From positions 1 through 52,089 of the forward strand of contig JAZDPV010000001.1 of NCBI GenBank assembly GCA_043797265.1: a DNA stretch of 52,089 nucleotides, given 5' to 3'. The position numbers and the translations under genes were made by a program. How positions within the stretch are numbered: the first letter of the stretch is position 1; every line of letters starts with the position of its first letter. Source of the stretch: an archaeon (GTDB lineage: Archaea; Nanobdellota; Nanobdellia; Pacearchaeales; GW2011-AR1). The notes beneath the pieces are model-generated. The model had not been told where the DNA came from. It saw only the letters and a program-made list of their open reading frames with translations, and made no database searches. This document shows, piece by piece, positions 16,516 through 33,041 of this stretch.

Positions 16516-16971
16516 ATGATAATCCAATCCCCAGCCTTCAACCACAACGAAAAAATTCCTATCAAATATACAGCCGACGGAACAAACATAAACCCGGAAC
16601 TCAACATTACAAAAATCCCAGAAAACACAAAATCATTAATCTTAATCATGGACGATCCCGACGCCCAAAAAGTTTGCGGCTTCACTTGGATTCACTGGGT
16701 CCTGTTTAATATTCCTGTAAACAGCAACCAATTAACAATCCAAAAAAATTCAATCTCAGGAACTCCCGGAGAAAGCACTTACAAAAAACCAGAATACAAC
16801 GGACCAAATCCCCCAGCCGGCTCCGGAACTCACAATTATAATTTCAAAATCTACGCCCTCGACAAAAAACTCGAGCTCCCAGAAATGACACCACTCCCAA
16901 GAATTATCGAGGCAATGAAAAATCACATCGTCGCAGAATCAATCTTGACGGGCAAATACTCAAGAGATTAA
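16516..16971 (+). CDS. YbhB/YbcL (PEBP/Raf kinase inhibitor-like) protein
   Basis: DDPDA, WIHWVLFNIP, YNGPNPP, HNYNFKIYALD. Confidence 0.93.
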   Translation: MIIQSPAFNHNEKIPIKYTADGTNINPELNITKIPENTKSLILIMDDPDAQKVCGFTWIHWVLFNIPVNSNQLTIQKNSISGTPGESTYKKPEYNGPNPPAGSGTHNYNFKIYALDKKLELPEMTPLPRIIEAMKNHIVAESILTGKYSRD

Positions 16972-17543
16972 ACCAAATACTCAAACACTTTATCATACGG
17001 GATAACCCATTTCACGGCCTCATCTTTCGACGCCCGCTCCATAATTTTTCTAAACAGCCGAATCGAATTTCCATGCGCCGAAATCGCAACATTAACTTTG
17101 TTCTTCCTCATAAATTTTTTCAAATCCTTAACAAACTTCCCGACTCTCTTTTCAACGTCGGCAAACGACTCCCCTTCCGGCGGTCGGCAATCAAATCCCC
17201 GATGCCACAACTCATATTGCTCCACCCCAAATTTATCAACAATCTCATAATGATATTTTCCCTCCAACTCGCCATAACTTCGTTCAATCATTCTATCATC
17301 CTCTAAAATAATCTTGCACTCCGGATGAGACTTCAAAACTATTTTCAAACTATCCTTCGACCTCGACAAACTCGTATGAATCGCCACCTCAAATTTCTTC
17401 CCCTTCAACTCTTTCGCAATTTTCTCAGCATGTTCTCGTCCCTCCACCGTCAACTTCGCATCCTTAAACCCAGTAAACCGCCCATCCCGATTAAACGTCG
17501 TCTGCCCATGCCTAAACAAATAAATTTTAAACTTCTTTCTCAT
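16968..17543 (-). CDS. Histidine phosphatase / cofactor-dependent phosphoglycerate mutase family
   Basis: YLFRHGQT, ERSYGELEG, PPEGES, SAHGNSIR; ATG at 17543 follows GGAGG. Confidence 0.9.
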   Translation of the reverse strand: MRKKFKIYLFRHGQTTFNRDGRFTGFKDAKLTVEGREHAEKIAKELKGKKFEVAIHTSLSRSKDSLKIVLKSHPECKIILEDDRMIERSYGELEGKYHYEIVDKFGVEQYELWHRGFDCRPPEGESFADVEKRVGKFVKDLKKFMRKNKVNVAISAHGNSIRLFRKIMERASKDEAVKWVIPYDKVFEYLV

Positions 17544-17607
17544 AAAACACACCTCCTGAAACCTGAATTCTAAAACCTGAATTCTCGAAACGCAAAGCGT
17601 TTCGCCG

Positions 17608-17643
17608 CCCATGCCGAAACAAATAAATCCTAAACCTCTTCAT
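17608..17643 (-). repeat. Orphan duplicate of the phosphatase gene start (MKRFRIYLFRHG)
   Basis: Matches real start MRKKFKIYLFRHG at 17543 with synonymous/conservative changes. Confidence 0.85.
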
Positions 17644-17702
17644 AAATAAAACAACAAAACACCATATAAAAACATTTTTATAATAAGACATCCTAATAAT
17701 AT

Positions 17703-18023
17703 ATGATAACCCAAGTAATAATAATAACAGTATTCGCAATCATCGGCCTGATAATTTTAAGAACCGAACACCAAGCGCGAAAAATCAAAATCCTTGTCAT
17801 AATCGCCATCGGATTCCTCTTATATTTCTCAATCGTCACCTTGTTCACATCCGAAGAAGTCGACATCTCATCACCACGAGGCGTAGTCCAGGCAACATAT
17901 TTATACTTCGGCTGGATAGGACGAAGCGTATCAAACTTATGGGACATCGGCGTCGACACCACTCACCTCATCGGCAACGCAATAAAAATCAACAACACAA
18001 AAACCCCAGAAACACAAAGGTAA
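17703..18023 (+). CDS. Hypothetical membrane protein
   Basis: 106-aa ORF with two hydrophobic segments. Confidence 0.75.
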   Translation: MITQVIIITVFAIIGLIILRTEHQARKIKILVIIAIGFLLYFSIVTLFTSEEVDISSPRGVVQATYLYFGWIGRSVSNLWDIGVDTTHLIGNAIKINNTKTPETQR

Positions 18024-18055
18024 ATTTAAATACAATACCTCAATAATTCTAACAA

Positions 18056-18128
18056 GCCGCAGTAGCTCAGCAGGTAGAGCGTTACATTGGTAATGTAAAG
18101 GTCGAGAGTTCAAACCTCTCCTGTGGCT
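18056..18128 (+). tRNA. tRNA-Thr(GGT)
   Basis: Acceptor GCCGCAG/CTGTGGC; anticodon arm TTACA-TTGGTAA-TGTAA; T loop TTCAAAC. Confidence 0.95.
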
Positions 18129-18224
18129 TAGTGACCTTTACGTAAAGGTTAAGCAATTCGCTTCGAGCAACAAAATAATTAAAGATTATTGCGAAATGCA
18201 AATTGCGAACAAAAAGCGAACAAA

Positions 18225-18252
18225 CCACTACCCACTACCCACTACCCACTAC
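18225..18252. repeat. Heptamer tandem repeat (CCACTAC)x4
   Basis: Seen directly; related to (CACTTCC)x4 inside pheS. Confidence 0.85.
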
Positions 18253-18304
18253 CAACTAATGTGGCTCCCCAAAATCTTATAAACCCTACATCCAAACCTA
18301 ATTA

Positions 18305-18784
18305 ATGGAAGACAAAAATTTCGACCTCGAAAAAGCATACAATGAACTCAAACAAAAACACAGCCTGCCAGAATTCAAAAAATTAATACAAGATTTCGAC
18401 GTCGAAAAAATTCAAGACGAAAAACCAATTCTGCTAATAAGAGAAATCCGACGAACAATCAACGAAAAAATCATGGCATACATTCACCTGTTCGAAAATC
18501 TAATCAACCCAAACGCTCCGCCAATATTCATTTTCTCAATTCTCAAAAACATTTCAAACCAAGACAAAGACACAATCAAGGAAATTTACAAAACATTATC
18601 AAGAACACAAATCGAAACAATGAAACTCGACACCATCTACGACGAAACCGCCGAAATAAAATTCATCAACGACATTTTCAACAAATGGCAGGAAATCAAG
18701 CCAAAAATTTACAAGCTCATCGAGAACTTCGAAACAAACTTCGAAACAAACGACACATCAAAAAAAAGCAGTTACTTCAGTTAA
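18305..18784 (+). CDS. Hypothetical protein
   Basis: 159-aa ORF with backbone-type codon usage. Confidence 0.8.
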   Translation: MEDKNFDLEKAYNELKQKHSLPEFKKLIQDFDVEKIQDEKPILLIREIRRTINEKIMAYIHLFENLINPNAPPIFIFSILKNISNQDKDTIKEIYKTLSRTQIETMKLDTIYDETAEIKFINDIFNKWQEIKPKIYKLIENFETNFETNDTSKKSSYFS

Positions 18785-18834
18785 TTAAAACCCATCCAAA
18801 TTTATTTTTACCGACGATAAGTATTTGCATCTGA

Positions 18835-19083
18835 TTAATACTTATGTCCAAAAATTATCTGTTCCAAGTAAAGCTCTCGCCTCTCAACACTATAAGAAAA
18901 AATCATTCTTAATTTATCAATTCTAATTCTACAACTTCCCGAAAAATCATAATGCATATGTTTATATCTTTCAGGATTTTCCGCGACTTCCTCAATTTTT
19001 TTCTTAATTCTTTTTTGAAAAAACAAATCAACCTTTTTAAAATCTTTAATAAATTCTTTTGTCGGAAGTACTTTATAACTCAT
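18835..19083 (-). CDS. RelE/ParE-family toxin
   Basis: MSYKVLPTKEFIKDFKK...IKKKIEEVAENP...RIRIDKLRMIF...GH. Confidence 0.88.
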   Translation of the reverse strand: MSYKVLPTKEFIKDFKKVDLFFQKRIKKKIEEVAENPERYKHMHYDFSGSCRIRIDKLRMIFSYSVERRELYLEQIIFGHKY

Positions 19084-19249
19084 CCAAATCACCAAAATCT
19101 CTTTCTTCTATTTGCTTCTTGGCTCTCTTATTCCCCGCCACAATTTCAGCGTCGCTCATCAAAAACAGAGATTCCATTCGCTCATTCATTTCAGCGACCA
19201 ATCTAACTAAATCTTTCATCGCGTCCTTATCTACACATACACCTACCAT
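19073..19249 (-). CDS. Putative antitoxin (58 aa, below ORF-track cutoff)
   Basis: Manual translation MVGVCVDKDAMKDLVRLVAEMNERMESLFLMSDAEIVAGNKRAKKQIEERDFGDLDEL; overlaps toxin start. Confidence 0.8.
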   Translation of the reverse strand: MVGVCVDKDAMKDLVRLVAEMNERMESLFLMSDAEIVAGNKRAKKQIEERDFGDLDEL

Positions 19250-19306
19250 ATTTTATACAATCAACTTGAGATTAAATAGTTTTTGATTAAAAAGCAGTTA
19301 CTTCAG

Positions 19307-20998
19307 CTAATTAAAATCCACCCCAATCTCCATCCCCACAACCGGCATCTTAATTTTCCAATTTTTCAAAACTCTCGGCGCAATCTCGCCAATTCGGCCA
19401 ATCTCTTTCCCGCCGACGACAATCTTCCCGCACCGCCCAATAATATAATTCGAATCCCCTGCTCGCAGGTTCTCGTGCCCCGAAGGGGTATCAACCGCTT
19501 CAATCAAATATTCAATCCCCAACATCTTAAACAAATAATCCAAAACCTGTTTCATCTCGGTAAAATTCACACTCTCATCAACCAAAGCAATGGCCAACTT
19601 TTCTTTTTCCAAAACCATTGTCTCGTTTTCCCCTTTGCTAAAAACCCGACCAATCTCAAAAATTTTATGCGGGTAAGCCGCATCCGAATTCTCCGACGCT
19701 ATCTGCAACAGTCCCGTCAACAAATCAATCCTCAAAACATCCCGCCCAGTTTTCGAATTCTCAACCTCGACAAAATCATTAAAATCATAATGCATCTTTC
19801 TGACATCTTTCTTCGTCGTCAAATGAAAACTCGAGCACTCCAAAAATCCAAGCCCGGCTAAAATATTTCCAATAACTCTTTTCATCCTATCAGCAGGATT
19901 CTCCTCGGCAATCGTAGAAATCTTCGGAATCTCCGACTCAAACTTGTCATACCCATAAGCAATCGCAACTTCCTCCGCCAAATCAATCCAATGCAAAATA
20001 TCCATTCGATAAGCCGGCACATCCGCCACCATTTCCCTGACACCCGGCGCCTGGCTCTTGACACCTTGCGAAGCAATTCCCATTCTCGCAAGATAACCAA
20101 CAATTTCCTTTTCGCTCAACTTAATCCCAAGCGTCTTCTCAACATCCTCAATCCTGAAATCCATTTTCTCCGGCGACATATCGGGCGAAACAAAATTCCC
20201 ATCCCTATAATCCTTGACATCCATCGCGTAAACTTTCCCGCCCATCTCCGAAATCGCCGCGACAATAATATTCAAACACTTTTTCAAATAAACCAAATTA
20301 TGTCCCGAACATTCAATAAAAATATCCCTCGTCTTCTCGTCAATCCGCCCCGTCTTCTCAGAATTAATAATCGGCGGCATCGACAAAATCTCATCATTAG
20401 CATCGACAAAAACCGGAAATACACCACAGCCCTTCAATAAATCTCCATACTCTCGCCCAGCCGGATGCCCACGCAAAATCTGTCGCCCCGTCATCTCAGC
20501 CCGCGCCTCCAACGGCATAAATTTAATATCCTCCGGCTTTCGCCCGACAAACCGAATCGGCAACTTAATTTTATCAAGCGGATAAATCCCAATCGCCAAC
20601 TTCCGACGCTTCCGCCCAATCGAGCCGTGCAACTTTTCCTGAATATCAACAATCTCCTTAATTTTCTCGTCGTCAAATCTCATCCCTTTCACAATCGCGC
20701 AAACACTATGTGGCCTAACTTCCTTAACCGACTTGTCAATCGTCACGACAAAATCTTTCTCCGGCTTGTTCACATTAAAACTCGCAACTCTCCCCTTCAC
20801 GACAAATTGATTAATCGCTCTCATAAAATTCCCAGCCGACAACAAATCCGGCCGATTCGGAAAAACCTCAACCGACAATTCATCGTCGCTGACTTCCTCA
20901 ATCGGCGTCCCAAACATCGAAATTTTTTCCTCTAGCTCTTTTGTCAACTTCCCAATCTTTCTCTCAAATTTTTTCCTATTAATAGTTAGTATCGTCAT
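19307..20998 (-). CDS. pheT: Phenylalanyl-tRNA synthetase beta subunit (archaeal type)
   Basis: PNRPDLLS, QEKLH, SMPPIINS, PAYRMDILHWIDLAEEVAIAYGY, IFEIGRVF; ATG at 20998. Confidence 0.95.
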   Translation of the reverse strand: MTILTINRKKFERKIGKLTKELEEKISMFGTPIEEVSDDELSVEVFPNRPDLLSAGNFMRAINQFVVKGRVASFNVNKPEKDFVVTIDKSVKEVRPHSVCAIVKGMRFDDEKIKEIVDIQEKLHGSIGRKRRKLAIGIYPLDKIKLPIRFVGRKPEDIKFMPLEARAEMTGRQILRGHPAGREYGDLLKGCGVFPVFVDANDEILSMPPIINSEKTGRIDEKTRDIFIECSGHNLVYLKKCLNIIVAAISEMGGKVYAMDVKDYRDGNFVSPDMSPEKMDFRIEDVEKTLGIKLSEKEIVGYLARMGIASQGVKSQAPGVREMVADVPAYRMDILHWIDLAEEVAIAYGYDKFESEIPKISTIAEENPADRMKRVIGNILAGLGFLECSSFHLTTKKDVRKMHYDFNDFVEVENSKTGRDVLRIDLLTGLLQIASENSDAAYPHKIFEIGRVFSKGENETMVLEKEKLAIALVDESVNFTEMKQVLDYLFKMLGIEYLIEAVDTPSGHENLRAGDSNYIIGRCGKIVVGGKEIGRIGEIAPRVLKNWKIKMPVVGMEIGVDFN

Positions 20999-20999
20999 T

Positions 21000-21116
21000 T
21001 TATTTTGATTTATCAAAGTCCTCTTTGGTTATATAATAAATTTTTTTGCCATCACCAAAATATTTTGAAAGCTTATTAACAAAAGCCCCATCAATAAAAA
21101 CCAACGTATCTTTCAT
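21000..21116 (-). pseudogene. Internally deleted NYN-domain gene remnant (38 aa)
   Basis: MKDTLVFIDGAFVNKLSKYFGDGKKIYYITKEDFDKSK: NYN-like VFIDG start joined to an end resembling the intact NYN gene at 32199; preceded by GGAGG. Confidence 0.7.
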
Positions 21117-21217
21117 AACAAACCTCCACAAAAACAAAATTCATCCAGCGACCCCGTAGGATCACTGGGGAACATATTAATGTAACGTAGACCAAATGCT
21201 TTATAAGTTTTTCCGTC

Positions 21218-21265
21218 CCCAACCTTCTTCTCAAATTCCCTTCTATTAATCGTCAGTATCGTCAT
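21218..21265 (-). repeat. Orphan duplicate of pheT start (MTILTINRREFEKKVG)
   Basis: Matches real start MTILTINRKKFERKIG at 20998. Confidence 0.9.
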
Positions 21266-21833
21266 CTTTCAAAAACTCCATTATATCTTTTATTTCTTCA
21301 GTCTCATTAAAATGTCCTTCGCCACTTTTTACAATAATTTTAGAATTAAGTTTTTTCTTAAAAATCTTAGTTTCAGACAACGGAACATAAGGGTCATCGT
21401 CGGAAAAAATAGCCAAAACTTTCGTCATATGATTCCTCGCTTTTTCAAAATCCATCGGAACGCCAACCCATGATTTCACAATCTCAACACTTTCCTCGCC
21501 TTCTTCCTCAATAGACTTCTCATTTAACTTTGTCCACGGCGCAACAAAAACAATTCCGCCAACCTTAATATTACCTCCGACATCAGACAAATATCTGATT
21601 ATAGTTTGACAACCTATGCTATGCCCGACAAAACAAGTATTTTCATCCAAATCACCGATAACTTCTTTCAATTTAGAAACCCACTCGCCCATCTTCGGAT
21701 TATCACTATCAGGCATAGCCGGAGCAATAAATTTTATACCACTAATTTCGCACTCCTTTTTTAACGGTCCAAACCACGACTCACCATCCGGACTTCCTCC
21801 CCACCCATGAACTAAAATTAGTTTTTCCATCAT
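21246..21833 (-). CDS. RBBP9/YdeN-family alpha/beta serine hydrolase
   Basis: LVHGWGG, GHSIG nucleophile elbow, SDDDPYVP, GHF. Confidence 0.92.
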   Translation of the reverse strand: MMEKLILVHGWGGSPDGESWFGPLKKECEISGIKFIAPAMPDSDNPKMGEWVSKLKEVIGDLDENTCFVGHSIGCQTIIRYLSDVGGNIKVGGIVFVAPWTKLNEKSIEEEGEESVEIVKSWVGVPMDFEKARNHMTKVLAIFSDDDPYVPLSETKIFKKKLNSKIIVKSGEGHFNETEEIKDIMEFLKDDDTDD

Positions 21834-22012
21834 CCCTTCAACACCTCAATCAGCTCATCAAATTTATTATTAATCGTCTCTTCCAAACTTTCAAGCTGTT
21901 CCTTAATTTCCTCCAAAGAATTTGGGTTCGCCTCACCTTCCATAACCCAACCCCTCCCTTCTAATCAAAAACAAAATCCTTTTAATCCTGTTTATCCTGC
22001 TTATGTTCTCCA

Positions 22013-23548
22013 TCACTTCCTCCAAAACTTCATCTCCCTCAATTTATTTATATCATTCTTGTAAACTTCTCTCAAATCACTAATCCCAAAAAATTCCGTG
22101 ATAATTCTATCAAACCCTTGTCCCCACGCCAGAACCGGAATGTGCCGCCCAAACATCGGAATCGTAACCTCCGGCCTAAACATCCCAGCTCCGCCAAGCT
22201 CAACCCATTTCTTTTTATCCGGATGAAAAACATCAACCTCCAACGACGGCTCGGTATACGCAAAATACGCCGGCCTAATCCGAATTTTCTTATACCCCAT
22301 CTTCCGATAAAACTCTTTCAAATATCCAAGCAACTGCCGAAAATTCGCATTCTCGTCGACGACAATTCCCTCGGTCTGATTAAACTCAAACCCATGCGAC
22401 CAATCAACCGTCTCGTTCCTAAAACATTTCCCAAGCGCAAAATATTTAGCCGGAAATTCCTTGTTCTTTCCAATCTCTAAAAGTTTCCTCGCCGACAACG
22501 AAGTCGTATGCGTCCTCATCAAAACCCTCTTCGCCTCTTCCTCGCTCCATTTATACTGCCAACCTTTCGACCCATCAATCCCACCCTCGTGCGCCTTCTT
22601 GACTTTTTCCCAAACACTTCCCACTTCCCACTTCCCACTTCCCACCGCACTTTTTACATCTTTGATGTAAAAAGTGTCCTGCATCTCCCGAACCGGATGG
22701 TCCTGCGCCGTGAACAAACTATCAAAAACCCAAAACCCGCTCTCAACCAAATTCCCGCTCATCTCCTTGAACCCCATCTCCAGCCAAATCGACTTCGCGT
22801 AATCAATCGCCTGATTCACAAAATGTCTCTTCCCCCCATAAACCCTTGGCACCGCCGACGTCAAATCATACCGCCTAAACTTCTTCCCCTTCCACCCGCT
22901 CCCCCTCAAAATCTTCGGCGTCAACGCTTCAATCAAATCATCGCCCAAATTCATCTTCGAAATCTTTTCCCCCAGCCTCGTCAACTTAACCCTCACGCTT
23001 TTCCGTTCCTCGACCTCGACAATATCTTTCCGTCCACGCAAATTCGCAAACGCCAACTTGTCCAAATCAGCGATGGTATCCAAATCCATCGGCAACTTTT
23101 CCATAAAAATTTCTTCAATCATTTTGTTCGTCACCTCCTCCGGCTTCGCATTCAAATTCACTCGCCCGTCCTTAATCTCAACCAGCGCCTTCTTCTTCAA
23201 AGTCCCCAGCGCAATCTTCGCCTCATTCTCATTCAGCCCACAAACATTCCTAATCTCGCCAATCAAAATCGCCTTCTTCTCCGCCAACTTCCCCAGCAAA
23301 ATCCTCTCCGGCAATTCCTTCTTCAAATAATTAATCCCAAGGATTCCCAAAATCACGACGCTCTTCTCCAAACTTTCAATCTCAACCAAATCCTTGTTCT
23401 TCAAAAAACCAACCGCCCTCAAAATCGAAGTCCTGTCCAAACCAACCTTCTCAGCGACGACATCAACATCTAAAAACTTCCCGCCAAGCGCCGGCAAAAT
23501 CTCACGCTCCATCGGCGACAAACTTTCGACAATCAACTTCTCTTCCAT
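22013..23548 (-). CDS. pheS: Phenylalanyl-tRNA synthetase alpha subunit (archaeal type)
   Basis: QDHPVREMQDTFY, RTHTT, FRNETVDWSH, FAYTEPS, ELGGAGMFRPE. Confidence 0.97.
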   Translation of the reverse strand: MEEKLIVESLSPMEREILPALGGKFLDVDVVAEKVGLDRTSILRAVGFLKNKDLVEIESLEKSVVILGILGINYLKKELPERILLGKLAEKKAILIGEIRNVCGLNENEAKIALGTLKKKALVEIKDGRVNLNAKPEEVTNKMIEEIFMEKLPMDLDTIADLDKLAFANLRGRKDIVEVEERKSVRVKLTRLGEKISKMNLGDDLIEALTPKILRGSGWKGKKFRRYDLTSAVPRVYGGKRHFVNQAIDYAKSIWLEMGFKEMSGNLVESGFWVFDSLFTAQDHPVREMQDTFYIKDVKSAVGSGKWEVGSVWEKVKKAHEGGIDGSKGWQYKWSEEEAKRVLMRTHTTSLSARKLLEIGKNKEFPAKYFALGKCFRNETVDWSHGFEFNQTEGIVVDENANFRQLLGYLKEFYRKMGYKKIRIRPAYFAYTEPSLEVDVFHPDKKKWVELGGAGMFRPEVTIPMFGRHIPVLAWGQGFDRIITEFFGISDLREVYKNDINKLREMKFWRK

Positions 23549-23610
23549 AAAATCAACTAATAAAAGAACTATTTAAAATTAACCAACTAAGTCTTTACAA
23601 GCGAAACATC

Positions 23611-25356: not shown

Positions 25357-25387
25357 TTATAATGCCAATCATCTTTTATAAAAGTTC

Positions 25388-25948: not shown

Positions 25949-25949
25949 A

Positions 25950-26783
25950 TCATAAATTGTCCAAAGGACTTTTTATATTCTCCAGTTTTTGATTAGAAAC
26001 ATGAGTATAAATTTCTGTCGTAGAAACATCACTATGTCCAAGCAACTTCTGAATATATCGAATATCAACTCCCTGCTCCAAAAGATGCGTCGCAAAACTA
26101 TGTCGAAGCATATGTGGGTGAATCCTAATTCCAATTTTCTTTCCAAGTCTCTCTAAAACTTTTTGAACAGACTTCTTACTATATTTCCTGCCATCTCTCC
26201 CTTCAAAAACATAATCCGTTCGAAATTTCATAGAGCTATAATATTTCAATAAATCATCCTTCAAATTATCAGACAAAATACTAATTCTATCTTTCTTCCC
26301 CTTACCCAGCCTAACCAAAATCAGTCCCCTGTCAAAATCAATATCACTTCTTTTTAAATTCAACAACTCCGAAAGCCGAAGTCCAGAAGAATAAAACAAC
26401 TTCACAATCAATCGATGTTTTATGTTATCACAAGCCTCAATCATTTCTTTTATTTTTTCAGCACTAATAACTTTCGGCAAAGTTTGTTCTTTTTTCTTTA
26501 TAGGAATTTGCTCAAAATCAAACGGTTTATTCAATATTTCACGAAAAAAGAAAGCCACCGCGGCATATTTTAACCTCATAGAATTAACCGACAAATTATC
26601 GCAAGACAAAAGATAAGATTTAACACTTTCATTAGATAGATTAAGACTACATTTATGACAATAATCTATGAATCCCATAATATGAAAATTATATGACCTA
26701 ATCGTTTGAACACTAAACCCATGTAATTTACACCTATTGATTATTCTATTTTGATATTCAGACCGAACATTCTGATAATACAT
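25950..26783 (-). CDS. Tyrosine recombinase (XerD/IntI-like) with SAM-like N-terminal domain
   Basis: GLRLSE, GKGKKDR, HMLRHSFATHLLE, LLGH, EIYTH: full catalytic set; start could be TTG 26792 or ATG 26783. Confidence 0.95.
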   Translation of the reverse strand: MYYQNVRSEYQNRIINRCKLHGFSVQTIRSYNFHIMGFIDYCHKCSLNLSNESVKSYLLSCDNLSVNSMRLKYAAVAFFFREILNKPFDFEQIPIKKKEQTLPKVISAEKIKEMIEACDNIKHRLIVKLFYSSGLRLSELLNLKRSDIDFDRGLILVRLGKGKKDRISILSDNLKDDLLKYYSSMKFRTDYVFEGRDGRKYSKKSVQKVLERLGKKIGIRIHPHMLRHSFATHLLEQGVDIRYIQKLLGHSDVSTTEIYTHVSNQKLENIKSPLDNL

Positions 26784-26835
26784 CAGCGACAAAATAATAA
26801 CATTTATTTAAATTCTCGTTGAAATTATAAAATTA

Positions 26836-26878
26836 TAACATCTACTAGATAGATTTGTATATCTAATAGATGTTAGCC
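26836..26878. other. attI-like recombination site: 40-bp palindrome ending in GTTAGCC
   Basis: TAACATCTA-C-TAGATA-N8-TATCTA-A-TAGATGTTA directly upstream of the recombinase; GTTRRRY-like core. Confidence 0.6.
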
Positions 26879-27086
26879 AAAATTTTCTTACTGCCTCCTA
26901 GCGTCGGTAAACCTCAAATTCTGATTTTGATATCTTCGTTTAACGCTCCAATGCGAAATTAAAATTGTCGCATAACATCGCTGATTAAACGAAATTGCTG
27001 AAAATAAAAACTAAAATTGTCTACCTAACCCCCACGGAAAGAGCGCGCGAGTTTTCTACGAAAACAGATAGTCGGCTTCGCCGAAA

Positions 27087-27353
27087 TTATTTTAATTCTT
27101 TTGCAACTTTTTCGCCATCTTTTGTTCTTCTGTAAATCCTTCCTGTTCTTTCTTCAGGGTTTACAACTTCAACTAATTTCTTTTCTTTCAATTCAGACAA
27201 TGCACGAGAAACAAGATTGAAATAAGTATTGCTGTTGCTTTTGTAAATTTTTATAACCAATTCAGAGGGCATCAGAGGTTTATCTAAATTCATAAAAACC
27301 TCTTTCCTATTCTTCCCTCTTTTTACAAAACCTATTGCTTTTAGCAATTCCAT
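27087..27353 (-). CDS. Winged-helix (ArsR/MarR-like) regulator
   Basis: PLMPSEL...VSRALSELKEKKLVE...GRIYRRT. Confidence 0.85.
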   Translation of the reverse strand: MELLKAIGFVKRGKNRKEVFMNLDKPLMPSELVIKIYKSNSNTYFNLVSRALSELKEKKLVEVVNPEERTGRIYRRTKDGEKVAKELK

Positions 27354-27460
27354 AGCAATCTATAAGCAATTTGGCTTAAGAAACAAATTCAACAATCTAT
27401 TAGCAAATTGTAAACGAAAAAAGAAAAGTTTTTAAAGGAGTTATTACACATTAATTCATT

Positions 27461-27970
27461 ATGGCGAAAGAAAATCATACCTACCAAATTATTTCGGTAA
27501 TTCTTTTAGTTGCGGTAATCACTTTTGCAGGATTATATTTTACAAAATCTGCTCCTTCACAAGAAATAAACGAACAAACTTGTTCAGATTTTATTAACGA
27601 ATGCCCAGAAATTCCGGCAGAAAAGGCTTTAATATTTGGAGCTTTAAATTCTTGGGGAGAAAATCTTTATGACTCTAGTAAAAATCTCTTTACTGTGGAA
27701 ATTTATAATTTTGGAAATGTTGAAGCAAGAAATGTAGAAGTAATATGCGATGTTACTGTTGGAGATGAAGATGGATATGAGGTGTCAGATATTCCCGTAT
27801 CAACAGTTACAAAAAGGATTGGAAATGTAGCATCAACATCTTACAAATATGTAGACCTTGAAAACAATATAAACAAACAGAAAGAAGGGAATTATCCTCT
27901 TGCAAGCTGTCGTATAAGTTATTGTGAAAACTGTGAAATTTTATCTGACAGAATTCCCGATTTAGAATAA
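27461..27970 (+). CDS. Membrane-anchored exported protein, Ig/CARDB-like
   Basis: N-terminal TM; VEIYNFGNVEARNVEV; several Cys. Confidence 0.75.
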   Translation: MAKENHTYQIISVILLVAVITFAGLYFTKSAPSQEINEQTCSDFINECPEIPAEKALIFGALNSWGENLYDSSKNLFTVEIYNFGNVEARNVEVICDVTVGDEDGYEVSDIPVSTVTKRIGNVASTSYKYVDLENNINKQKEGNYPLASCRISYCENCEILSDRIPDLE

Positions 27971-27971
27971 A

Positions 27972-28331
27972 ATGTTTTTCATATTTGGTTGGGGACATAG
28001 AAATATAAAAAATTTTGGTCAAACTCTTGTCCAAAAATGTCCTGTTTGTTCTCACACTTCTCATTATTCTCTTGTAAGAACAAGAGATTGGTTTACTTTA
28101 TTTTTTATTCCAATCTTTCCCTATGAAACAAAATATTATTTAGAATGTCCTGTTTGTAAAAATGCTTTTGAATTAGAGAATGAAAACAACATAGAAAAGT
28201 TAAAAGAAATCGCGGAACTTATAGAAAAATTTGACAATAAAGAAGTAACAAAGAAAGAATTAAACAAACAATATAATAGTTTAGTGAAAGAAATAAAACC
28301 AGAAACAAAAGAAGAAGATGAAGAAGATTAA
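27972..28331 (+). CDS. Zinc-ribbon protein (zinc_ribbon_15-like)
   Basis: MFFIFG...CPVC...WFTLFFIPIFP...CPVC. Confidence 0.88.
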   Translation: MFFIFGWGHRNIKNFGQTLVQKCPVCSHTSHYSLVRTRDWFTLFFIPIFPYETKYYLECPVCKNAFELENENNIEKLKEIAELIEKFDNKEVTKKELNKQYNSLVKEIKPETKEEDEED

Positions 28332-28501
28332 TTTTCTTTTTTAGAAAAAAAGAAACAAAAAAGCGCGCTCTAAAACCAACGACAATTTTAAAGACAATTT
28401 TCAGCAACTACGATATCAAAGAATTTTCGGCAGTAAAAAAACTCTCTCCGCTACGCTCCGAGCCACGCCTTGCAGGCTCTCCTCACTTCGTTCGTCGGGT
28501 C

Positions 28502-28611
28502 GGCTAACAGCGATTAAAGAGAAAATCCTTGCAGGATTTTCCCAAATTAATTTCTCATCCAGCTCGTAAACTCGCGGGAGAAATTAACTTTCTTTAATCG
28601 CGATGTTAAAC
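28502..28611. other. attC-like site (110 bp)
   Basis: TAACA-GCGATTAAAGA pairs with TCTTTAATCGC-GA-TGTTA (2-nt bulge); two internal hairpins GAAAATCCT/AGGATTTTC and TTAATTTCTC/GAGAAATTAA. Confidence 0.7.
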
Positions 28612-28645
28612 CCAAAAAATCCGCCCTCATCCGCGAAATCCGTGG

Positions 28646-29338
28646 TTAAAATTTCTCTCCTCTAATAATAGTCCCAACAAACTTCTTCCCACGCAAAATC
28701 CCATCAATCGCTTTCAACGACCCGACGATATAAGTTACAATCTTCTCGTCCCGAATTACCCTCGCCGCCGATTGGTCCAAAACAAAATGCTGCCCCGCTT
28801 CAAACTTAATTTTCCTAAACATCCCATAAAAATCATCCCAGCTAATCCTCGAAATAAATCGCGCTCCCTTGTTCGTCTTCGGATTCGCGCTATAAAGCCC
28901 CCGAACATTCGTCAAGTTAATAAACGAACATCCCAAATATCCAGCCAACTTCGCCGCAGTCCCGTCGCTGGTATTTTTCCTGTAATATCTCAACGCCCCG
29001 CAAAACACAACCCGATTTTTTCTCAACAAATTCTTAACCCTTTTCATGTTCAACGGCACATCCTCATTAGCGACCTTCCCAAAAATTCTCGCCATAAACC
29101 CGGCATGCAATCTTGTCACCACAATCCCCTCCATCGACCGCGCTTTCATCCCCTTCTTTAACTTTTTCAACGCTCCCATATACCTCCGCGCCGTCGACCC
29201 CCCACCAGTCACGACGACAAACCTCTTGTCTCCATGCGAATCCAGCAATCGCTTAAACCTAACCAAAAATTTATCATCGACATCATCCGGCACAATCCTC
29301 GACCCACCCAGCGAAATCACCCAAACTTTTTCCATCAT
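28646..29338 (-). CDS. pyrH: UMP kinase
   Basis: VISLGGS, VVTGGGSTAR, TSDGTAA, NLTNVRGLY, AGQHFVLD. Confidence 0.93.
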   Translation of the reverse strand: MMEKVWVISLGGSRIVPDDVDDKFLVRFKRLLDSHGDKRFVVVTGGGSTARRYMGALKKLKKGMKARSMEGIVVTRLHAGFMARIFGKVANEDVPLNMKRVKNLLRKNRVVFCGALRYYRKNTSDGTAAKLAGYLGCSFINLTNVRGLYSANPKTNKGARFISRISWDDFYGMFRKIKFEAGQHFVLDQSAARVIRDEKIVTYIVGSLKAIDGILRGKKFVGTIIRGEKF

Positions 29339-29412
29339 CTAAAACAACAACACAACTTTATATATATTATGAAAACAGAAAAAACTATTAACAACAAAAA
29401 CCTCAAACAAAC

Positions 29413-29721
29413 ATGGAAAGAAATCCCATAACAGAATCTCTCGCTAAAAATTTTCGTGAATATTTACAAGACCCATCGCTTAACGGAGGTTACAAAGCCG
29501 AAATCCCCTCGCCAAATCTAATAACATACAACGTCGCCAACCTTCATTTCGAAGTAGAATTCGTAGAAAAATACCAATGTAAATTAAGAATAACAAATGG
29601 TTCAAAGATAGAAGAACAAGTAAGCATCCCATACAACGAATTTTCCAAAACTCCAGATTGGCAAATTTTTCTCGAAGGAATATTCGCACTCACAAGACAA
29701 AGATTACTTCACCGTGAATAA
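29413..29721 (+). CDS. Hypothetical protein
   Basis: 102-aa ORF filling the gap between minus-strand genes. Confidence 0.6.
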   Translation: MERNPITESLAKNFREYLQDPSLNGGYKAEIPSPNLITYNVANLHFEVEFVEKYQCKLRITNGSKIEEQVSIPYNEFSKTPDWQIFLEGIFALTRQRLLHRE

Positions 29722-29985
29722 CTCGTCGTCATTCACATCAAAAATTCCCAGTCGAACTCCGGCGTCCAACCACCCATGCGCGTAACTCAAAGCCGCGAAA
29801 GCATTCACCCAATCACCCTTTCTTTCAAAATGTCGCGCGTCAGAAACATAATTCCCAACCATCCCGATAATCTCATCCGCCTCGCTCCCTTTCCCGTCGA
29901 CAACATTCTTCTTCGCTTCAGCCAGCCCCCGCCCGGTCAAATCAAAATACCTGTCCAACTTTTCTCTCGAAATTTCATTCCCCAT
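29704..29985 (-). CDS. DUF357-family protein
   Basis: YVSDARHF...GDWVNAFAALSYAHGWLDAG. Confidence 0.92.
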   Translation of the reverse strand: MGNEISREKLDRYFDLTGRGLAEAKKNVVDGKGSEADEIIGMVGNYVSDARHFERKGDWVNAFAALSYAHGWLDAGVRLGIFDVNDDELFTVK

Positions 29986-30009
29986 AAAATAAAAATCAAA
30001 TCAACCCTT

Positions 30010-30666
30010 TTAAAATTTCCCTTCCAACATGGCATAAGCATTCTGCTTCTTAATCACGAACCGCGAACCAATAATATCAGAAACAACAGCGCTAATAAAA
30101 AAATTATCAATAGCCGCACGAAACACGCCCTCCAAAATCGGAATATGAACAGAATCAGAAACTTTATCTAAAACATTCTTTATCTCGTCAGCACTCAACA
30201 CAATTCTCGTCAACTGCTTCTGTCCCGCTCGAATAACAATCAACGGCTTCCCGGCGCCATGACACTCAATAGTCGAAACCGAAACGTCATTAAGCAGCAA
30301 CGTAATCTTCCCATAATCCTGGCTCAACCCAACATTGCCCATAATTCTCGGCGGAACCATAATAAAATTTCCTTCTCCAACCTCCCCCAACTTCTCCCTG
30401 CCTTGCGTCACTTTCCCACCAGGTGGCACACGCATCACTTTTCGAATCGGAACACGCGGCGGAACAACAGGAATTTTAGGCAAAACCTTAGGAGTTTCCA
30501 TCGACGCCATCATAACTTTTTCTGAAAACTTCGGCACCAAATCCGCATGAACAACAAATTTCTCATCGTGAACTAAACCATTGGCCCTAATATTCTGCAA
30601 AATCGCCAGAACAAATCTCCGGACAAAAGGATGCTCAGCCACCAAAGAAATCTGCTCAGAGCTCAT
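30010..30666 (-). CDS. Hypothetical protein; C-terminus resembles the N-terminal domain of type II/IV secretion ATPases
   Basis: YGKITLLLNDVSVSTIECHGAGKPLIV; no Walker motifs. Confidence 0.7.
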   Translation of the reverse strand: MSSEQISLVAEHPFVRRFVLAILQNIRANGLVHDEKFVVHADLVPKFSEKVMMASMETPKVLPKIPVVPPRVPIRKVMRVPPGGKVTQGREKLGEVGEGNFIMVPPRIMGNVGLSQDYGKITLLLNDVSVSTIECHGAGKPLIVIRAGQKQLTRIVLSADEIKNVLDKVSDSVHIPILEGVFRAAIDNFFISAVVSDIIGSRFVIKKQNAYAMLEGKF

Positions 30667-31082
30667 ATACTCGGCAACGGCTTGGGTCTCGCCATCACAC
30701 CCGAAACCTGACTCCTAAAACCTGAATTCTCAGAAGATTCCATCTCTTGTCTTCCGCGTAACTTCCCCTCCATCAAAACCAATCCCTTCGCAATCGTTTT
30801 GTTCTGCTCCAGCAACGAATCAATTTTCTTCAACATATCCTTGTCATCAACTCGCCCCCCCGATACAAACCCCTTCGCCGCCTCCTCAAAAACATTCAAC
30901 AGCCTCGTAATATTATCAGACAACGCCCCAAACTTAATCGACAAATTCGTCATCGCATGTTGCAACCCCACAAAATTCTCAACCAACAATTCCTCTCTTT
31001 CTTTCGCTGTCATTTTATTCACAGAACTTTTTCTAACTTTCACATCCCCAGAATCCTCTTCCTCTACCACCTTCTTCACCAT
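30663..31082 (-). CDS. Hypothetical coiled-coil protein
   Basis: LVENFVGLQ...LLEQNKTIAKGL; coupled to downstream gene. Confidence 0.8.
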   Translation of the reverse strand: MVKKVVEEEDSGDVKVRKSSVNKMTAKEREELLVENFVGLQHAMTNLSIKFGALSDNITRLLNVFEEAAKGFVSGGRVDDKDMLKKIDSLLEQNKTIAKGLVLMEGKLRGRQEMESSENSGFRSQVSGVMARPKPLPSI

Positions 31083-31157
31083 ATCAAAATTAAGAAGACC
31101 TTATTTATAAAAGTATTGGGAAGAGGATAATAAATATAAATTTATTATAAATTTATA

Positions 31158-31228
31158 TGGGCGCAGGAGGAATCAAACCCCCGCCTCCCGGGCTGGAGCC
31201 GAGCAGACTATCATTATCCGATGCACCC
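31158..31228 (-). tRNA. tRNA-Trp(CCA)
   Basis: Acceptor GGGTGCA/TGCGCCC; anticodon arm CTCGG-CTCCAGC-CCGGG; atypical A19 and T56. Confidence 0.8.
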
Positions 31229-31268
31229 AATATAAAAATAAAGATAACACATCTTTTAAATTTAATCA

Positions 31269-31398
31269 TGGGCCGCAGGAGGTGAGCAATTCGCTTTTGA
31301 AAAATAATTTTCGTAATATTTTTTCAAATGCAAATTGCGAATTAGAACCCCCGCCTCCCGGGCTGGAGCCGAGCAGACTATCATTATCCGATGCACCC
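31269..31398 (-). pseudogene. Second tRNA-Trp copy interrupted in the T loop by a ~60-bp hairpin
   Basis: Identical to 31158-31228 through the 5' T-stem, then insert, then CCTCCTGCGGCCCA (one extra G). Confidence 0.75.
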
Positions 31399-31501
31399 AA
31401 TACAAAAATAGAGATAATACAATTTTTAAATTTAATCCCAACAAACAAACGCAGACAAACCGCGCAACATCCCACTTCCAGCGACGACAAAGTTGGCGCG
31501 G

Positions 31502-31544
31502 ACTTCCAGCAAAGCGGACTACCCACTTCCAGCAAAGCGGACTA
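31502..31544. repeat. Direct repeat ACTTCCAGCAAAGCGGACTA x2 (23-bp period)
   Basis: Seen directly; spans the stop of the PIN-like gene; partial third copy near 31471. Confidence 0.8.
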
Positions 31545-32202
31545 TCTCATCTATTTCATTAGATGAGATAGCGCACCCTTTAAACTTAACACCATACAAC
31601 AACGCATCCAACAAATCCTTGCTTTTCCCGAAGGAAACCAACCCCTTTTTCCACGCAATATACACCAACTCCGCCGACCGAATAAATTTAACATTCTTCA
31701 AATTATCCAACAACTTCAAATTCGCATCCAACGGCATGTGCAACTTTCGCTCCATCATTCTCTCCAAATCTCCCGGCGCTTCAACCAGCATCCTCGTCGT
31801 CCTTTCATCAATCACAACCACGTTCTCATCTCCGCACAAATTCGCAAACGCCAAACATTCCGCCTCGCCATCATGTACAATTTTTATCTTTTCTCCCGTC
31901 GCTGTCACCCGCAAAATCCCATTCACAATTTTCAAAATCCGCTTCGTCTCCCTATTCAATTTTTGTGGTGCAACAAAATCCGTCGCCATCTTAAAAATCC
32001 CGCGAGAAATCAAATCCTCAACCTGAATCGCTTCCAGTTTAAACTTTTTAATTCCCATCGGCTTATCAATCACTTCCCCTTTAATCCTCGGCGTCAAAAT
32101 AAATTCTCCGCCAAAAATCAACTTCAACTTCTCAATCACTGGCAACATCCCATTCATAGTAAGAGAAATTATCGGCCCGGCATCGAAGATTAAATATTTC
32201 AT
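31519..32202 (-). CDS. PIN-like protein (DUF3368-like)
   Basis: LIFDAGPIISL, DGEAECLA, VVIDERTTR; ATG at 32202. Confidence 0.75.
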   Translation of the reverse strand: MKYLIFDAGPIISLTMNGMLPVIEKLKLIFGGEFILTPRIKGEVIDKPMGIKKFKLEAIQVEDLISRGIFKMATDFVAPQKLNRETKRILKIVNGILRVTATGEKIKIVHDGEAECLAFANLCGDENVVVIDERTTRMLVEAPGDLERMMERKLHMPLDANLKLLDNLKNVKFIRSAELVYIAWKKGLVSFGKSKDLLDALLYGVKFKGCAISSNEIDEIVRFAGSG

Positions 32203-32825
32203 TTCTTGTCCTTCAAACATTTATTTAATTCTTCTTTCTTTAAAATCAAATAAGGAAATTTCTGTCTCAACTCATTCGAAAACCCTCGGGCGACAGAAAC
32301 ACACAAAACATCTTTCCCAATTTCACCAACCAAATTCAAAGCCGGAACAAAATCAGCGTCGCCAGAAATTAAAACACAACAATCAACTCCATCTATCGCC
32401 GCCTTAACTACATCAATCGCAATCCAAACATCAATACCCTTTTCCTTCTTCTGATTATCAGCAATATCCAAAAACGCCTCCTCGACAATCGGCTTACAAA
32501 CCTCACACAAATCCCACGCCTCAACCAATTCCTGCCGTCTCTTCTTCAACTCCTTCGTAGATAATTTTTGCAACTTTCTCGTAATTATTTTAATTCCCTG
32601 CTTTTGCAAATACCCCAAAAATACCCTCTGTGTTTTATATATAATTTCATTGTCTTTTCTATCGGGCATCGATGCATACCAACGAATTTCAGAAACATTC
32701 AAATAATATTTTTCAGAAATAAAATCACAAAGTTTCTTTATATCAACCAATCCTGGCTTAATCAAATGCTTAACATTATGATACCAATTATTAGCGTCAA
32801 TAAAGACAATAGTTTTCTTATCCAT
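32199..32825 (-). CDS. NYN-domain (LabA/DUF88) putative ribonuclease
   Basis: VFIDANN, KEKGIDVWIAID, LISGDADFVPA, SNEL; ATG at 32825 after GAGGTG. Confidence 0.93.
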   Translation of the reverse strand: MDKKTIVFIDANNWYHNVKHLIKPGLVDIKKLCDFISEKYYLNVSEIRWYASMPDRKDNEIIYKTQRVFLGYLQKQGIKIITRKLQKLSTKELKKRRQELVEAWDLCEVCKPIVEEAFLDIADNQKKEKGIDVWIAIDVVKAAIDGVDCCVLISGDADFVPALNLVGEIGKDVLCVSVARGFSNELRQKFPYLILKKEELNKCLKDKK

Positions 32826-32922
32826 TAAACACCTCAAGAATATGAAGCCCGGCATGTCCGAAGAGATACCGGGGACTTAAAGTATAATAAAATACACAAC
32901 TTAGTTTATATTTGTTTCGATT

Positions 32923-33041
32923 AGAAATTATCGGCCCAGCGTCGAGAATAAGATACTTCATAAAAAATTCCTCCTGAAATCTGAATTCTGAAATCTGACA
33001 TCTCGCGAAGCGCGTCTCGCATCAAAAATCAAATACTTCAT
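32923..33041 (-). repeat. Two orphan duplicates of the PIN-like gene start (32923-32961 and 33018-33041)
   Basis: MKYLILDAGPIIS and MKYLIFDA versus real MKYLIFDAGPIIS at 32202. Confidence 0.9.

Follow-up and report, generated by a model that had tools for sequence, protein, structure and literature searches.

Restriction-modification gene complexes in bacteria have been found inserted with a long duplication of the target, the repeats in many cases spanning a start or stop codon and the target gene remaining intact; in the sections of that report on which we draw, the mechanism of insertion is left open (PMC2853133, Furuta et al. 2010). A second precedent is homology-facilitated illegitimate recombination (HFIR), a one-sided homologous capture that has been proposed, in the portion of the source used here, for the displacement of effector-immunity modules of type VI secretion (T6SS) and for the orphan modules of Rhs and contact-dependent inhibition (CDI) systems (PMC5361080). 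Here we describe a related pattern at four loci in a window of 52,089 nucleotides (nt), the whole stretch of DNA that was analysed, which is contig 1 of a 625-kb, 18-contig genome (G000): conserved genes whose start or end is duplicated around small inserts, among them cassettes that carry an NYN nuclease gene or a toxin-antitoxin (TA) pair. The loci are an archaeal variant of a known pattern, and the mechanism is unproven. Judging by sequence, the source is a DPANN archaeon, because relatives of the NYN gene come from Pacearchaeota, Woesearchaeota and Nanoarchaeota assemblies. DPANN genomes are very small and tightly packed, with few recognisable mobile elements, and the route by which they gain accessory or defence genes is thus in question; the loci show a recurrent, recombinase-free route that places genes at gene boundaries, leaves essential genes unbroken and would be reversible through the flanking repeats.

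The same pattern was reportedly described for bacterial restriction-modification genes in 2000 by Nobusato et al., as insertion with long target duplication of restriction-modification gene complexes, and its mechanism is said to be still open there. Phage 21 and e14 in icd, and SXT in prfC, are integrative elements that bring a replacement gene end, and Ogata et al. reportedly described, in 2000, Rickettsia palindromic elements inserted in frame in protein genes.

All four loci in the window show an insert flanked by two versions of a gene terminus, in the form of direct repeats of 23-51 nt with 74-90% identity, as the original prediction had held for these places. The gene remains complete thanks to one version of the terminus; the second is a dead stub. 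The start repeats at three loci each open with ATG, and the upstream copy, read on the minus strand, reaches a stop within ~20-50 codons. By sequence the inserts fall into two kinds, cassettes that appear to be self-expressed from a TATA box of their own (NYN, ParE/RelE pair and, elsewhere in the genome, HEPN-MNT pair) and a non-coding mini-element. We read the four loci as accessory DNA inserted in the first 8-17 codons (three loci) or in the overlapping convergent ends (one locus) of conserved genes, and we regard this explanation as a whole, including the one-sided anchor mechanism described below, as a roughly even call. Gene families were assigned with Pfam and NCBIfam profiles, and the closest relative, G005, served as orthologue reference; in what follows, C-numbers are contigs of G000 unless another genome is named, G-numbers are genomes of relatives and L-numbers are loci from scans of metagenomes or of a genome collection.

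The 227-amino-acid (227-aa) gene carries two inserts and three copies of its start:

31519-32202, minus strand: conserved 227-aa gene, working copy, ATG at 32202; orthologues in 104 metagenome stretches, 80 kept
32164-32202 and 32923-32961, minus strand: start repeat, 39 nt, 82% identical
32199-32825, minus strand: NYN nuclease gene (Pfam NYN, PF01936, 74.7 bits, cut-off 24.2)
32826-32922, minus strand: left part of the NYN cassette, an A-rich stretch and TATA (AATCGAAACAAATATAAAC), then the leader hairpin at ~32848-32873
32923-32961, minus strand: start stub 2 (MKYLILDAGPIIS), 39 nt, 82% identical
32962-33017, minus strand: mini-element, the outer insert, with a short hairpin, TCAGATT/TCAGAAT/TCAGATT and GGAGG
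33018-33041, minus strand: start stub 1 (MKYLIFDA), a direct repeat
33019-33041, minus strand: the part of stub 1 that forms the third copy of the gene start, 23 nt, 74-78% identical

The TGA stop of the NYN gene overlaps the ATG of the 227-aa gene (ATGA), and the frame of stub 1 likewise closes with a TGA that overlaps the next ATG. Stub 2 differs from the working copy by five synonymous and two non-synonymous changes (Nei-Gojobori), with 12 of 13 residues identical. The 227-aa gene has no Pfam or NCBIfam match, which removes the support for its earlier label 'PIN-like'.

The start of pheT and its upstream neighbour are arranged as follows:

19307-20998, minus strand: pheT (archaeal Phe-tRNA synthetase beta subunit), working copy; match in 39 of 41 related genomes
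20951-21001 and 21218-21268, minus strand: pheT start repeat, 51 nt, 80% identical
20999-21217, minus strand: degenerate cassette with a TATA-like box, a hairpin (CCAGTGATCC..GGGTCGCTGG) and a 38-aa open reading frame (ORF)
21218-21268, minus strand: pheT start stub (MTILTINRREFEKKVG), its ATG at 21265 overlapping the end of the hydrolase gene
21246-21833, minus strand: serine hydrolase gene upstream of pheT (Pfam Ser_hydrolase); same neighbour in G008 (locus L006)

Two features of this insert recall the NYN cassette. Its hairpin (-26.7 kcal/mol, z=-2.3) has the same motif as that found upstream in several NYN cassette leaders, and the 38-aa ORF (21000-21116) has a weak BLASTP match to an NYN N-terminus of G000 (8/20 identical, E=7e-4) and no match in Pfam. 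The stub residues EFEKKVG are closer to the genus consensus than those of the working copy; identity of pheT within the genus is 58-80%.

The other end of pheT meets a convergent gene, and both stop codons lie inside the repeat:

18305-18784, plus strand: conserved 159-aa gene, convergent with pheT (ORF); its final codons, KSSYFS*, lie within the repeat
18763-18801 and 19289-19327, no strand: repeat flanking the ParE/RelE pair, 39 nt, 90% identical
18835-19095, minus strand: ParE/RelE-family toxin gene, cassette cargo (Pfam ParE_toxin, 25.9 bits, cut-off 23)
19073-19249, minus strand: 58-aa ORF upstream of the toxin gene and overlapping it, a position typical of type II pairs

The cassette sits between two convergent genes with overlapping ends. 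In copy A of the repeat (19289-19327), the pheT stop (GVDFN*) is the working one and the end of the convergent gene is a stub; in copy B (18763-18801), the 3' end of the 159-aa gene is the working one and that of pheT a stub. One G/A difference between the copies is silent in both frames (TAG/TAA and AGC/AGT). The 159-aa gene has no Pfam or NCBIfam match, and a homologue lies on the opposite strand between pheT and the phosphatase gene in G005. A toxin family match together with a small overlapping upstream partner suggests that the 18835-19249 pair is a type II TA module; the partner, which matches no Pfam or NCBIfam family, is presumed from its position to be the antitoxin.

At the fourth locus the insert is a mini-element:

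16968-17543, minus strand: histidine phosphatase gene, working copy, ATG at 17543 (Pfam His_Phos_1, E=4.7e-35)
17504-17537 and 17607-17640, minus strand: phosphatase start repeat, 34 nt, 88% identical
17544-17606, minus strand: mini-element (sequence, motif search, fold), one of 30 arrays in G000
17607-17643, minus strand: phosphatase start stub (MKRFRIYLFRHG), whose frame crosses the mini-element and stops after 38 codons

It consists of an 8-bp hairpin (CGAAACGC/GCGTTTCG), the heptamers AGAATTC/AGGTTTT/AGGTTTC and a GGAGG 8 nt 5' of the working ATG. The N-terminus of the phosphatase is alignable to the G005 orthologue MKKRLKVYLFRHG. The expectation that all inserts would be gene modules therefore fails at two places, the phosphatase insert and the outer insert of the 227-aa gene both being non-coding mini-elements.

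Compared with the restriction-modification cases, as far as the sections of that report used here describe them, the likeness lies in accessory, addiction-type genes inserted without transposase or integrase and in variable direct repeats of more than 30 bp that are single-copy at a relative's uninterrupted site (PMC2853133). Three of the repeats here are 34-51 nt long; before the 227-aa gene, the outer copy spans no more than 23-24 nt. The original prediction knew of no described system with this pattern; that can no longer be maintained, given the start- and stop-spanning long target duplications reported, in those same sections, for bacterial restriction-modification genes. The differences, within the same limits, are that those cases are bacterial, with no archaeal case surviving the screen of that paper; that their cargo is restriction-modification genes, whereas here it is an NYN nuclease and TA pairs; that their repeats are nearly identical (e.g. 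44/46 nt), whereas many here are 74-90% identical with a synonymous excess; and that here one cassette family with fixed ends recurs before many genes (PMC2853133). No R or M gene was found in any insert examined, and within the library that we searched there was no prior account of a mobile NYN cassette or of this pattern in archaea. The HFIR model proposed for the T6SS, in the portion of the source used here, shares with our loci one conserved anchor with an illegitimate join at the other end, orphaned parts of the old gene and modules that carry a copy of the flank; there, the anchor lies within the toxin locus and the old module is displaced downstream, whereas here the anchor is the first codons of a housekeeping gene and the residue is a stub of 6-40 codons (PMC5361080). 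A further difference is that the archaea concerned here have no known means of competence or of DNA transfer.

Relatives hold uninterrupted sites. Of 12 targets with an orthologue in G005, eight have a preceding same-strand ORF that ends 1-43 nt before the start, and there is therefore no room for a cassette at those sites. The pheT start has been used more than once: in G008, a HAD-like and a MazG-like gene lie between a 13-codon stub and the working start, the stub being fused in frame to the first cargo gene, and in G015 a copy of the pheT N-terminus lies ~117 nt upstream. Elsewhere in pheT, the matches in G023 (C22:2858-4576) and G018 (C26:726-2426) are split in two although the frame stays open, with a gap of ~65-70 nt near residue 458, which suggests an in-frame insertion at that point. 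A metagenome scan with the 227-aa gene yielded 80 loci, 72 of them classifiable: 33 have a neighbour ending at or no more than 45 nt from the start (most with ATGA), seven have an NYN cassette and 32 another insert. About half of these loci thus hold an insert, of 60-1650 nt, and the place where the 227-aa gene meets its upstream neighbour is a general hot spot of insertion. At one of them (L098:2575-3003) a GNAT gene has been inserted; it overlaps by ATGA on either side, and a stub is lacking.

The NYN cassettes before the 227-aa gene (L123, L135, L137, L178/L179 and the window) have a common left end (AAACCRAAAACAATATAAAC) and a common right end, with the NYN frame abutting the ATG, and their stubs are of 6, 13, 17 and 18 codons. 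Carriage is patchy: on a tree of the 227-aa host gene it requires at least five changes among the seven carriers, at least four of them forced by well-supported branches, and lineages rank differently by NYN identity than by host-protein identity.

The pattern also recurs throughout G000, as the original prediction had expected. Each 16-aa N-terminus was searched for in the 2.5 kb preceding its gene, with the upstream stretch of another gene, picked at random, as control. Among 528 ORFs, scores of at least 45 were obtained for 27 genes against one control, and of at least 50 for 24 against none; some of these matches are tandem paralogues, and after inspection at least 15 loci are stub-insert-gene structures. 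In G005, 11 of 564 genes reached 45 and eight of 564 reached 50, with no control matches, and most were tandem paralogues. The C-terminal scan gave scores of at least 45 for 5 of 523 genes in G000 and 5 of 558 in G005 (controls 0), several of them paralogues, such as ribosomal stalk proteins with shared tails. NYN cargo is present at five or six G000 loci, with hosts that include EndoIII, SBDS, the 227-aa gene and genes on C16 and C12; a ParE-type pair precedes an EndoIV-like gene, a HEPN and nucleotidyltransferase pair (HEPN-MNT; HEPN, NTP_transf_2) precedes ABCE1, both with Pfam support, and some inserts have no ORF. Cassettes start with a TATA-like box 5-20 nt past the stub, in ~10 loci the repeats open at the ATG with no similarity upstream, and the stub ends vary in position and frame. 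On C14, the NYN gene points the opposite way to the repeat. The longest repeat lies at C12:4349-4700, where a 40-codon stub of a GTPase start, ~190 nt free of ORFs and the working start follow one another, with many silent differences that include TCG/AGT.

An assembly that stitched strain variants of one population in series could mimic such repeats. The assembly is fragmented, at 18 contigs, and two contig ends carry identical tandem copies of a start and mini-element; the contigs from three public read runs (a single study, best share 0.14) are only 150-240 nt long and of low depth, and none of them bridges a junction. One read contig (X2) skips 17534-17664 with 32 other letters in place, one side matching merely 21 letters at 80% likeness, and it is uninformative either way. 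However, the junction between stub and cassette would be absent from either hypothetical strain, so that a mis-join in the assembly graph cannot make it, the architecture recurs in independent assemblies (G008, L113, L123, L135, L137, L208, L211, L214, L234), and mini-elements lie in frame inside 23 long ORFs. We find an artefact hardly credible.

A virus or plasmid integrated at an attachment site (att) in a gene end, bringing a replacement terminus, and since decayed to addictive cargo, would be another source. Replacement termini with silent differences are known from such integration, TA modules are generally known to resist loss, and G000 holds three tyrosine recombinases. The icd and prfC elements also have a duplicated terminus with mostly silent differences, in which the element-borne copy restores the gene; they are, however, large and integrase-encoding with a fixed att core, and none of these traits is seen here. 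By insert ORFs and Pfam, no recombinase lies within or beside any of the ~15 G000 inserts, whose cargo is NYN, ParE_toxin, HEPN, NTP_transf_2 or unassigned, and the three recombinases, one Y1 transposase fragment and one reverse transcriptase (RT) of the genome are not near an insert. The claim that no transposase or integrase is adjacent thus extends to every insert examined, and the suggested involvement of the recombinase at 25950 is dropped:

25950-26792, minus strand: XerA-like tyrosine recombinase (Pfam Phage_integrase and SAM_4), one of the three in the genome, outside the structure and adjoining no locus

The inserts are also short (80-800 nt) and gene-dense, their targets are many and different, stub length varies (6-18 codons) with the same cassette and target, so that a constant att core is lacking, and there was no NYN relative among 13 candidate stretches from a viral contig collection. 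Remnants of integrase-borne elements are therefore very improbable. Splicing or ribosome hopping across the insert, either of which would place the stub under selection, was also set aside, because direct repeats cannot form a bulge-helix-bulge and inserts of 600-800 nt are too long.

The NYN cassette is a unit that recurs beyond this genome. The window gene scores above the PF01936 cut-off and has the conserved acidic residues of the family, D10, D132, D138, D156 and D158, which are invariant in 24 NYN relatives and which we take to be catalytic. A scan of the genome collection gave 65 loci at 49-75% identity, of which 60 were analysed. A same-strand ORF lies no more than 200 nt downstream at 47 of them, and in 37 of these 47 the NYN frame closes at -25 to +2 nt relative to the next ATG, with an ATGA overlap in 16 (by a simple start rule); the cassette ORF lacks a separate stop codon and continues into the start codon of the gene that is restored. 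The genes downstream are of 20 or more kinds, among them a YchF-like GTPase, PolX, the 2-oxoacid oxidoreductase beta subunit, CysRS, DNA ligase, HsdM, HsdR and a Cas4-like nuclease. Clear stubs of the local gene were seen at L208, L211, L214 and L234, and short stubs at L178, L180, L185, L188, L212 and L217. In a strict prefix test, at least four residues match at 6 of 37 NYN loci versus 5 of 370 mismatched controls, and at least five at 4 of 37 versus none of 370. Within the family, 54 of 81 genomes have the gene, with 0-6 matches each; G000 has eight, six of them above the cut-off. PADLOC gave weak matches to NYN-type defence candidates.

The cassette leader is also conserved. A motif, AAGTCCC, occurs within 150 nt of the NYN start at 51 of 56 loci, and 45 aligned leaders share a 10-pair hairpin with compensatory changes at five pairs and no broken pair. 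The hairpin (32848-32873 in the window) has the form CCCCGG..UUCG..CCGGG, with variants CCAG/CUGG, and lies at the presumed 5' end of cassette transcripts; it has no Rfam match and could serve in recognition by the nuclease or in its control. At L080:1001-2400 (G188), an NYN cassette lies in the 3' part of an IS66-like transposase gene, ~25 codons of which are duplicated; the cassette therefore also lands in other mobile elements. An alignment of the flanks of 20 NYN loci was too noisy, and tight windows left L080 as the one clear locus, L094 having a C-terminal copy further out.

Such recurrence raises the possibility that the duplication is made in place. The cassette's own NYN (PIN-like) nuclease, or a host enzyme, would make widely staggered cuts around the start, fill-in would yield a target duplication of 20-120 nt, TA cassettes and mini-elements would be moved in trans, and the repeat copies would diverge afterwards. 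One cassette family with fixed ends before at least 20 unrelated genes, the close fit of 37 of 47 NYN genes to the next ATG, repeats that begin at the ATG in ~10 G000 loci, near-identical repeats (C16, L211, L234), the invariant nuclease residues and the patchy copy number of NYN all speak for it. Against this, characterised NYN enzymes are RNases, the inverted NYN gene on C14 shows that the repeat is not tied to cassette orientation, and the tight fit to the ATG could reflect genome streamlining, as the unrelated GNAT insert of L098 also has ATGA at both ends. The divergence of the repeat copies, described next, is also at odds with it. We consider in-place duplication possible and hold it tentatively at best. 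A bolder version is doubtful: the NYN cassette would be an autonomous element of a new kind, without transposase or integrase, whose own PIN-like nuclease recognises gene start regions and drives insertion just 5' of the start codon with long target duplication; the leader hairpin would be its recognition or control site, the TA cassettes passengers or scars, and the mini-element could be a repair scar left by fold-back synthesis and templated heptamer addition.

Stub and working copy differ in a protein-constrained manner. Differences were counted in two sets of pairs, and pN/pS is expected to be at least 0.5 if the stub drifted freely with only the working copy constrained:

12 pairs from G000: 172 codons, 77 differences; synonymous differences (Sd) 38, non-synonymous differences (Nd) 39; pN/pS 0.27; P=2e-8 versus 1 and 0.004 versus 0.5
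8 pairs from other genomes: 144 codons, 54 differences; Sd 36.4, Nd 17.6; pN/pS 0.12; P=8e-14 versus 1 and 4e-7 versus 0.5

By codon position 1/2/3, the differences number 18/20/39 in the G000 pairs (chi-square P=0.005) and 13/6/35 in the others, so that they are not random with respect to codon position. The original statement that they are mostly synonymous holds per site and not for the raw counts of G000, 38 against 39. All 12 differences in L113 and L123 together are synonymous, and multi-base synonymous switches between copies occur (TCG/AGT, AGA/CGG). Polarised against G005, derived residues are about equal in number in the two copies (~10 in the working copy versus ~9 in the stub, hand count). 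Adenine-specific differences, of the type made by diversity-generating retroelements, were not seen by eye. In the sister lineages L178 and L179, a common stub has a scrambled 3' part beside a conserved cassette; old stubs decay at random, and clean stubs are therefore probably recent. By sequence, clean stubs look like working gene starts from another lineage rather than drifting relics, which supports arrival of the module together with a copy of the terminus.

Constraint on both copies would also follow if selection maintained the stubs, either because coupled translation needs them as short upstream reading frames or because they act as alternative starts. This would account for the synonymous excess; the stub frames of the 227-aa gene and of a cupin gene end at a TGA overlapping the next ATG, and the G008 stub is fused in frame to its first cargo gene. 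Coupling, however, requires a translated frame and not a particular peptide, stub ends vary in position and frame, and older stubs (L178, L179) decay freely. Selection for the stubs themselves is thus an improbable explanation.

We favour insertion by a one-sided anchor. A cassette would spread between related genomes as a piece of DNA that also carries the opening codons of the gene behind it; these would pair with the resident gene as a homologous anchor on one side, and at the promoter end of the cassette an illegitimate joint would form a few codons inside the resident gene, perhaps on a sister copy of the chromosome. Overall, this would amount to HFIR, equivalent to insertion with a long and variable target duplication, and the flanking repeats could later permit precise loss of the cassette. 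What the sequences show directly is the anatomy of the loci, the uninterrupted sites of relatives, the recurrence in many genomes, the patchy distribution and the synonymous excess; that one repeat copy comes from a donor, how the joints are made and whether the NYN nuclease has a part in it are our inferences. For HFIR, one copy and its adjoining tract should come from a diverged donor; the synonymous excess and the variable left junctions fit, in pairs ascertained by protein similarity. A mosaic as left by a single (Campbell) crossover, with the stub derived on its 3' side and the working copy on its 5' side, was rejected as a general rule: by hand reading it fits ABCE1, SBDS and the EndoIV-like gene and fails for pheT, EndoIII and the gene at C12 36120.

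Several observations weigh against insertion by a one-sided anchor. The pairs were picked by protein similarity and the repeat limits set by eye, both of which inflate the synonymous share. Several repeats are near-identical (C16 42/43 nt, L211 49/51 nt, L234 41/42 nt), and those of L214, L135 and the SBDS pair are mosaics, identical in the 3' part (24-41 nt) and diverged in the 5' part, unlike the simple one-crossover prediction. A recognisable stub is present at only ~1/4 of NYN loci in other genomes; the divergence of NYN matches that of the host protein (58-75% vs 65-80% identity), and recent transfer is therefore not shown; no donor-recipient pair of close strains is among the genomes compared; and the lack of a junction-bridging read contig, noted above, counts here too. 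One NYN cassette family precedes at least 20 genes with stubs that match the local gene; together with the near-identical and mosaic repeats, this means that a de novo duplication step must also exist, in which the NYN nuclease might be involved.

The earlier claim that modules travel with a terminus, restore the gene and leave a scar therefore stands in part. Insertion, restored gene, stub, synonymous excess, a fixed right junction with varying stubs and the changes on the host-gene tree support it, and the local stubs at so many targets require the additional step. Similarly, the claim that the repeats are not fresh target duplications agrees with the synonymous excess and fails for the near-identical repeats. 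Since the stubs of the known instances vary between near-identical and decayed, and a single cassette family is present at more than 20 targets, the question can be approached by population genomics and NYN biochemistry.

The mini-element is a distinct, non-coding insert of 56-63 nt: a short hairpin, three or four TCAGNNN heptamers and a GGAGG ~8 nt before the working ATG. A search for two or more TCAGNNN units followed by TCAG found 30 arrays in G000, where shuffles predict 0.05. A four-unit pattern has 28 matches in G000; the 120 other genomes of the order that were searched, eight of them from the same genus, have none. Open frames of at least 100 aa contain 23 of these arrays out of 30, on the coding strand in every case, in genes that include PolB, EndoIII, GatE-like, Cbf5, ProRS (twice), Kae1, RtcB and L6:

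In-frame arrays, for example: C3:15132-15156, C5:16235-16259, C9:14076-14100, C12:66183-66207, C12:66669-66693, C15:610-634, C18:33283-33300
30711-30730 of the window, minus strand: third heptamer mini-element copy, in frame near the C-terminus of ORF 30663-31082 (...ENSGFRSQVSG...)

In-frame arrays lie in loops that are variable in the orthologue; 15 could be aligned across to G005, with a gap of at least 6 aa in eight, of 1-3 aa in four and none in three. Perfect palindromes of 7-14 bp partly overwrite host codons. Codon alignments show that the hairpin is unique to each locus, its 5' arm being host sequence and its 3' arm an inverted copy over host codons, as in ATG AAG CCG GCA CGG CTT CAT C in a topoisomerase-like gene. 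All arrays have only the TCAGNNN period in common, the 3-nt variable part usually being uniform within an array and different between arrays. Duplicated starts bracket the mini-element at the phosphatase gene, the 227-aa gene, the cupin gene (C16) and a pilin-like gene (C7, RGQVT...RGQVT in frame), and the two contig ends mentioned above carry it in tandem with a start. Near gene starts, its GGAGG may supply a ribosome-binding site for re-initiation. Perfect palindromes and foreign peptides are thereby placed inside polymerase, tRNA synthetase and ribosomal protein genes.

Like the Rickettsia palindromic elements (RPEs), the mini-element is short, multi-copy and non-coding and lies in frame in variable loops of conserved housekeeping genes. 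As in RPEs and miniature inverted-repeat transposable elements, insertion is in frame relative to orthologues, but the conserved sequence and terminal inverted repeats of such elements are lacking. In contrast to RPEs, its hairpin arms are locus-specific and partly an inverted copy of adjacent host sequence, only the TCAG periodicity is shared, it occurs in 1 of 121 genomes searched, and near the starts of genes it is bracketed by duplicated starts. RT was rejected as the source of the heptamers, an RT being present in 19 of 49 genomes of the genus and the heptamers in G000 only; a second heptamer family in G139 was also set aside, as its nine 'control' matches were one tandem array.

A start of the 227-aa gene in another lineage (L113:2021-2167) has a 19-codon stub, a hairpin (CGAGAA..TTCTCG), repeats of the GTCGCTT type, GGAGG and ATG, the same design as the G000 mini-element with another repeat unit; all five differences between its repeats are synonymous. 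A second heptamer type, GGTAGNN (e.g. GGTAGTG x4), is intergenic and lies just 5' of gene starts at 18236-18270, at C16:36450-36495 and on C14 near 28804.

Directly downstream of the 227-aa gene, 31502-31544 holds a perfect 20-nt direct repeat (ACTTCCAGCAAAGCGGACTA) with 23-nt spacing. An Rfam search of the window returned four tRNAs only. GC skew is about -0.5 where genes are on the minus strand (whole window), and coding strands are unusually purine-rich. Elsewhere in G000, weak coding-strand skew, as in foreign DNA, marks both the RT gene (C3:10119-10757) and a tyrosine recombinase beside a truncated Y1 (IS200-type) transposase (C18:84904-87294).

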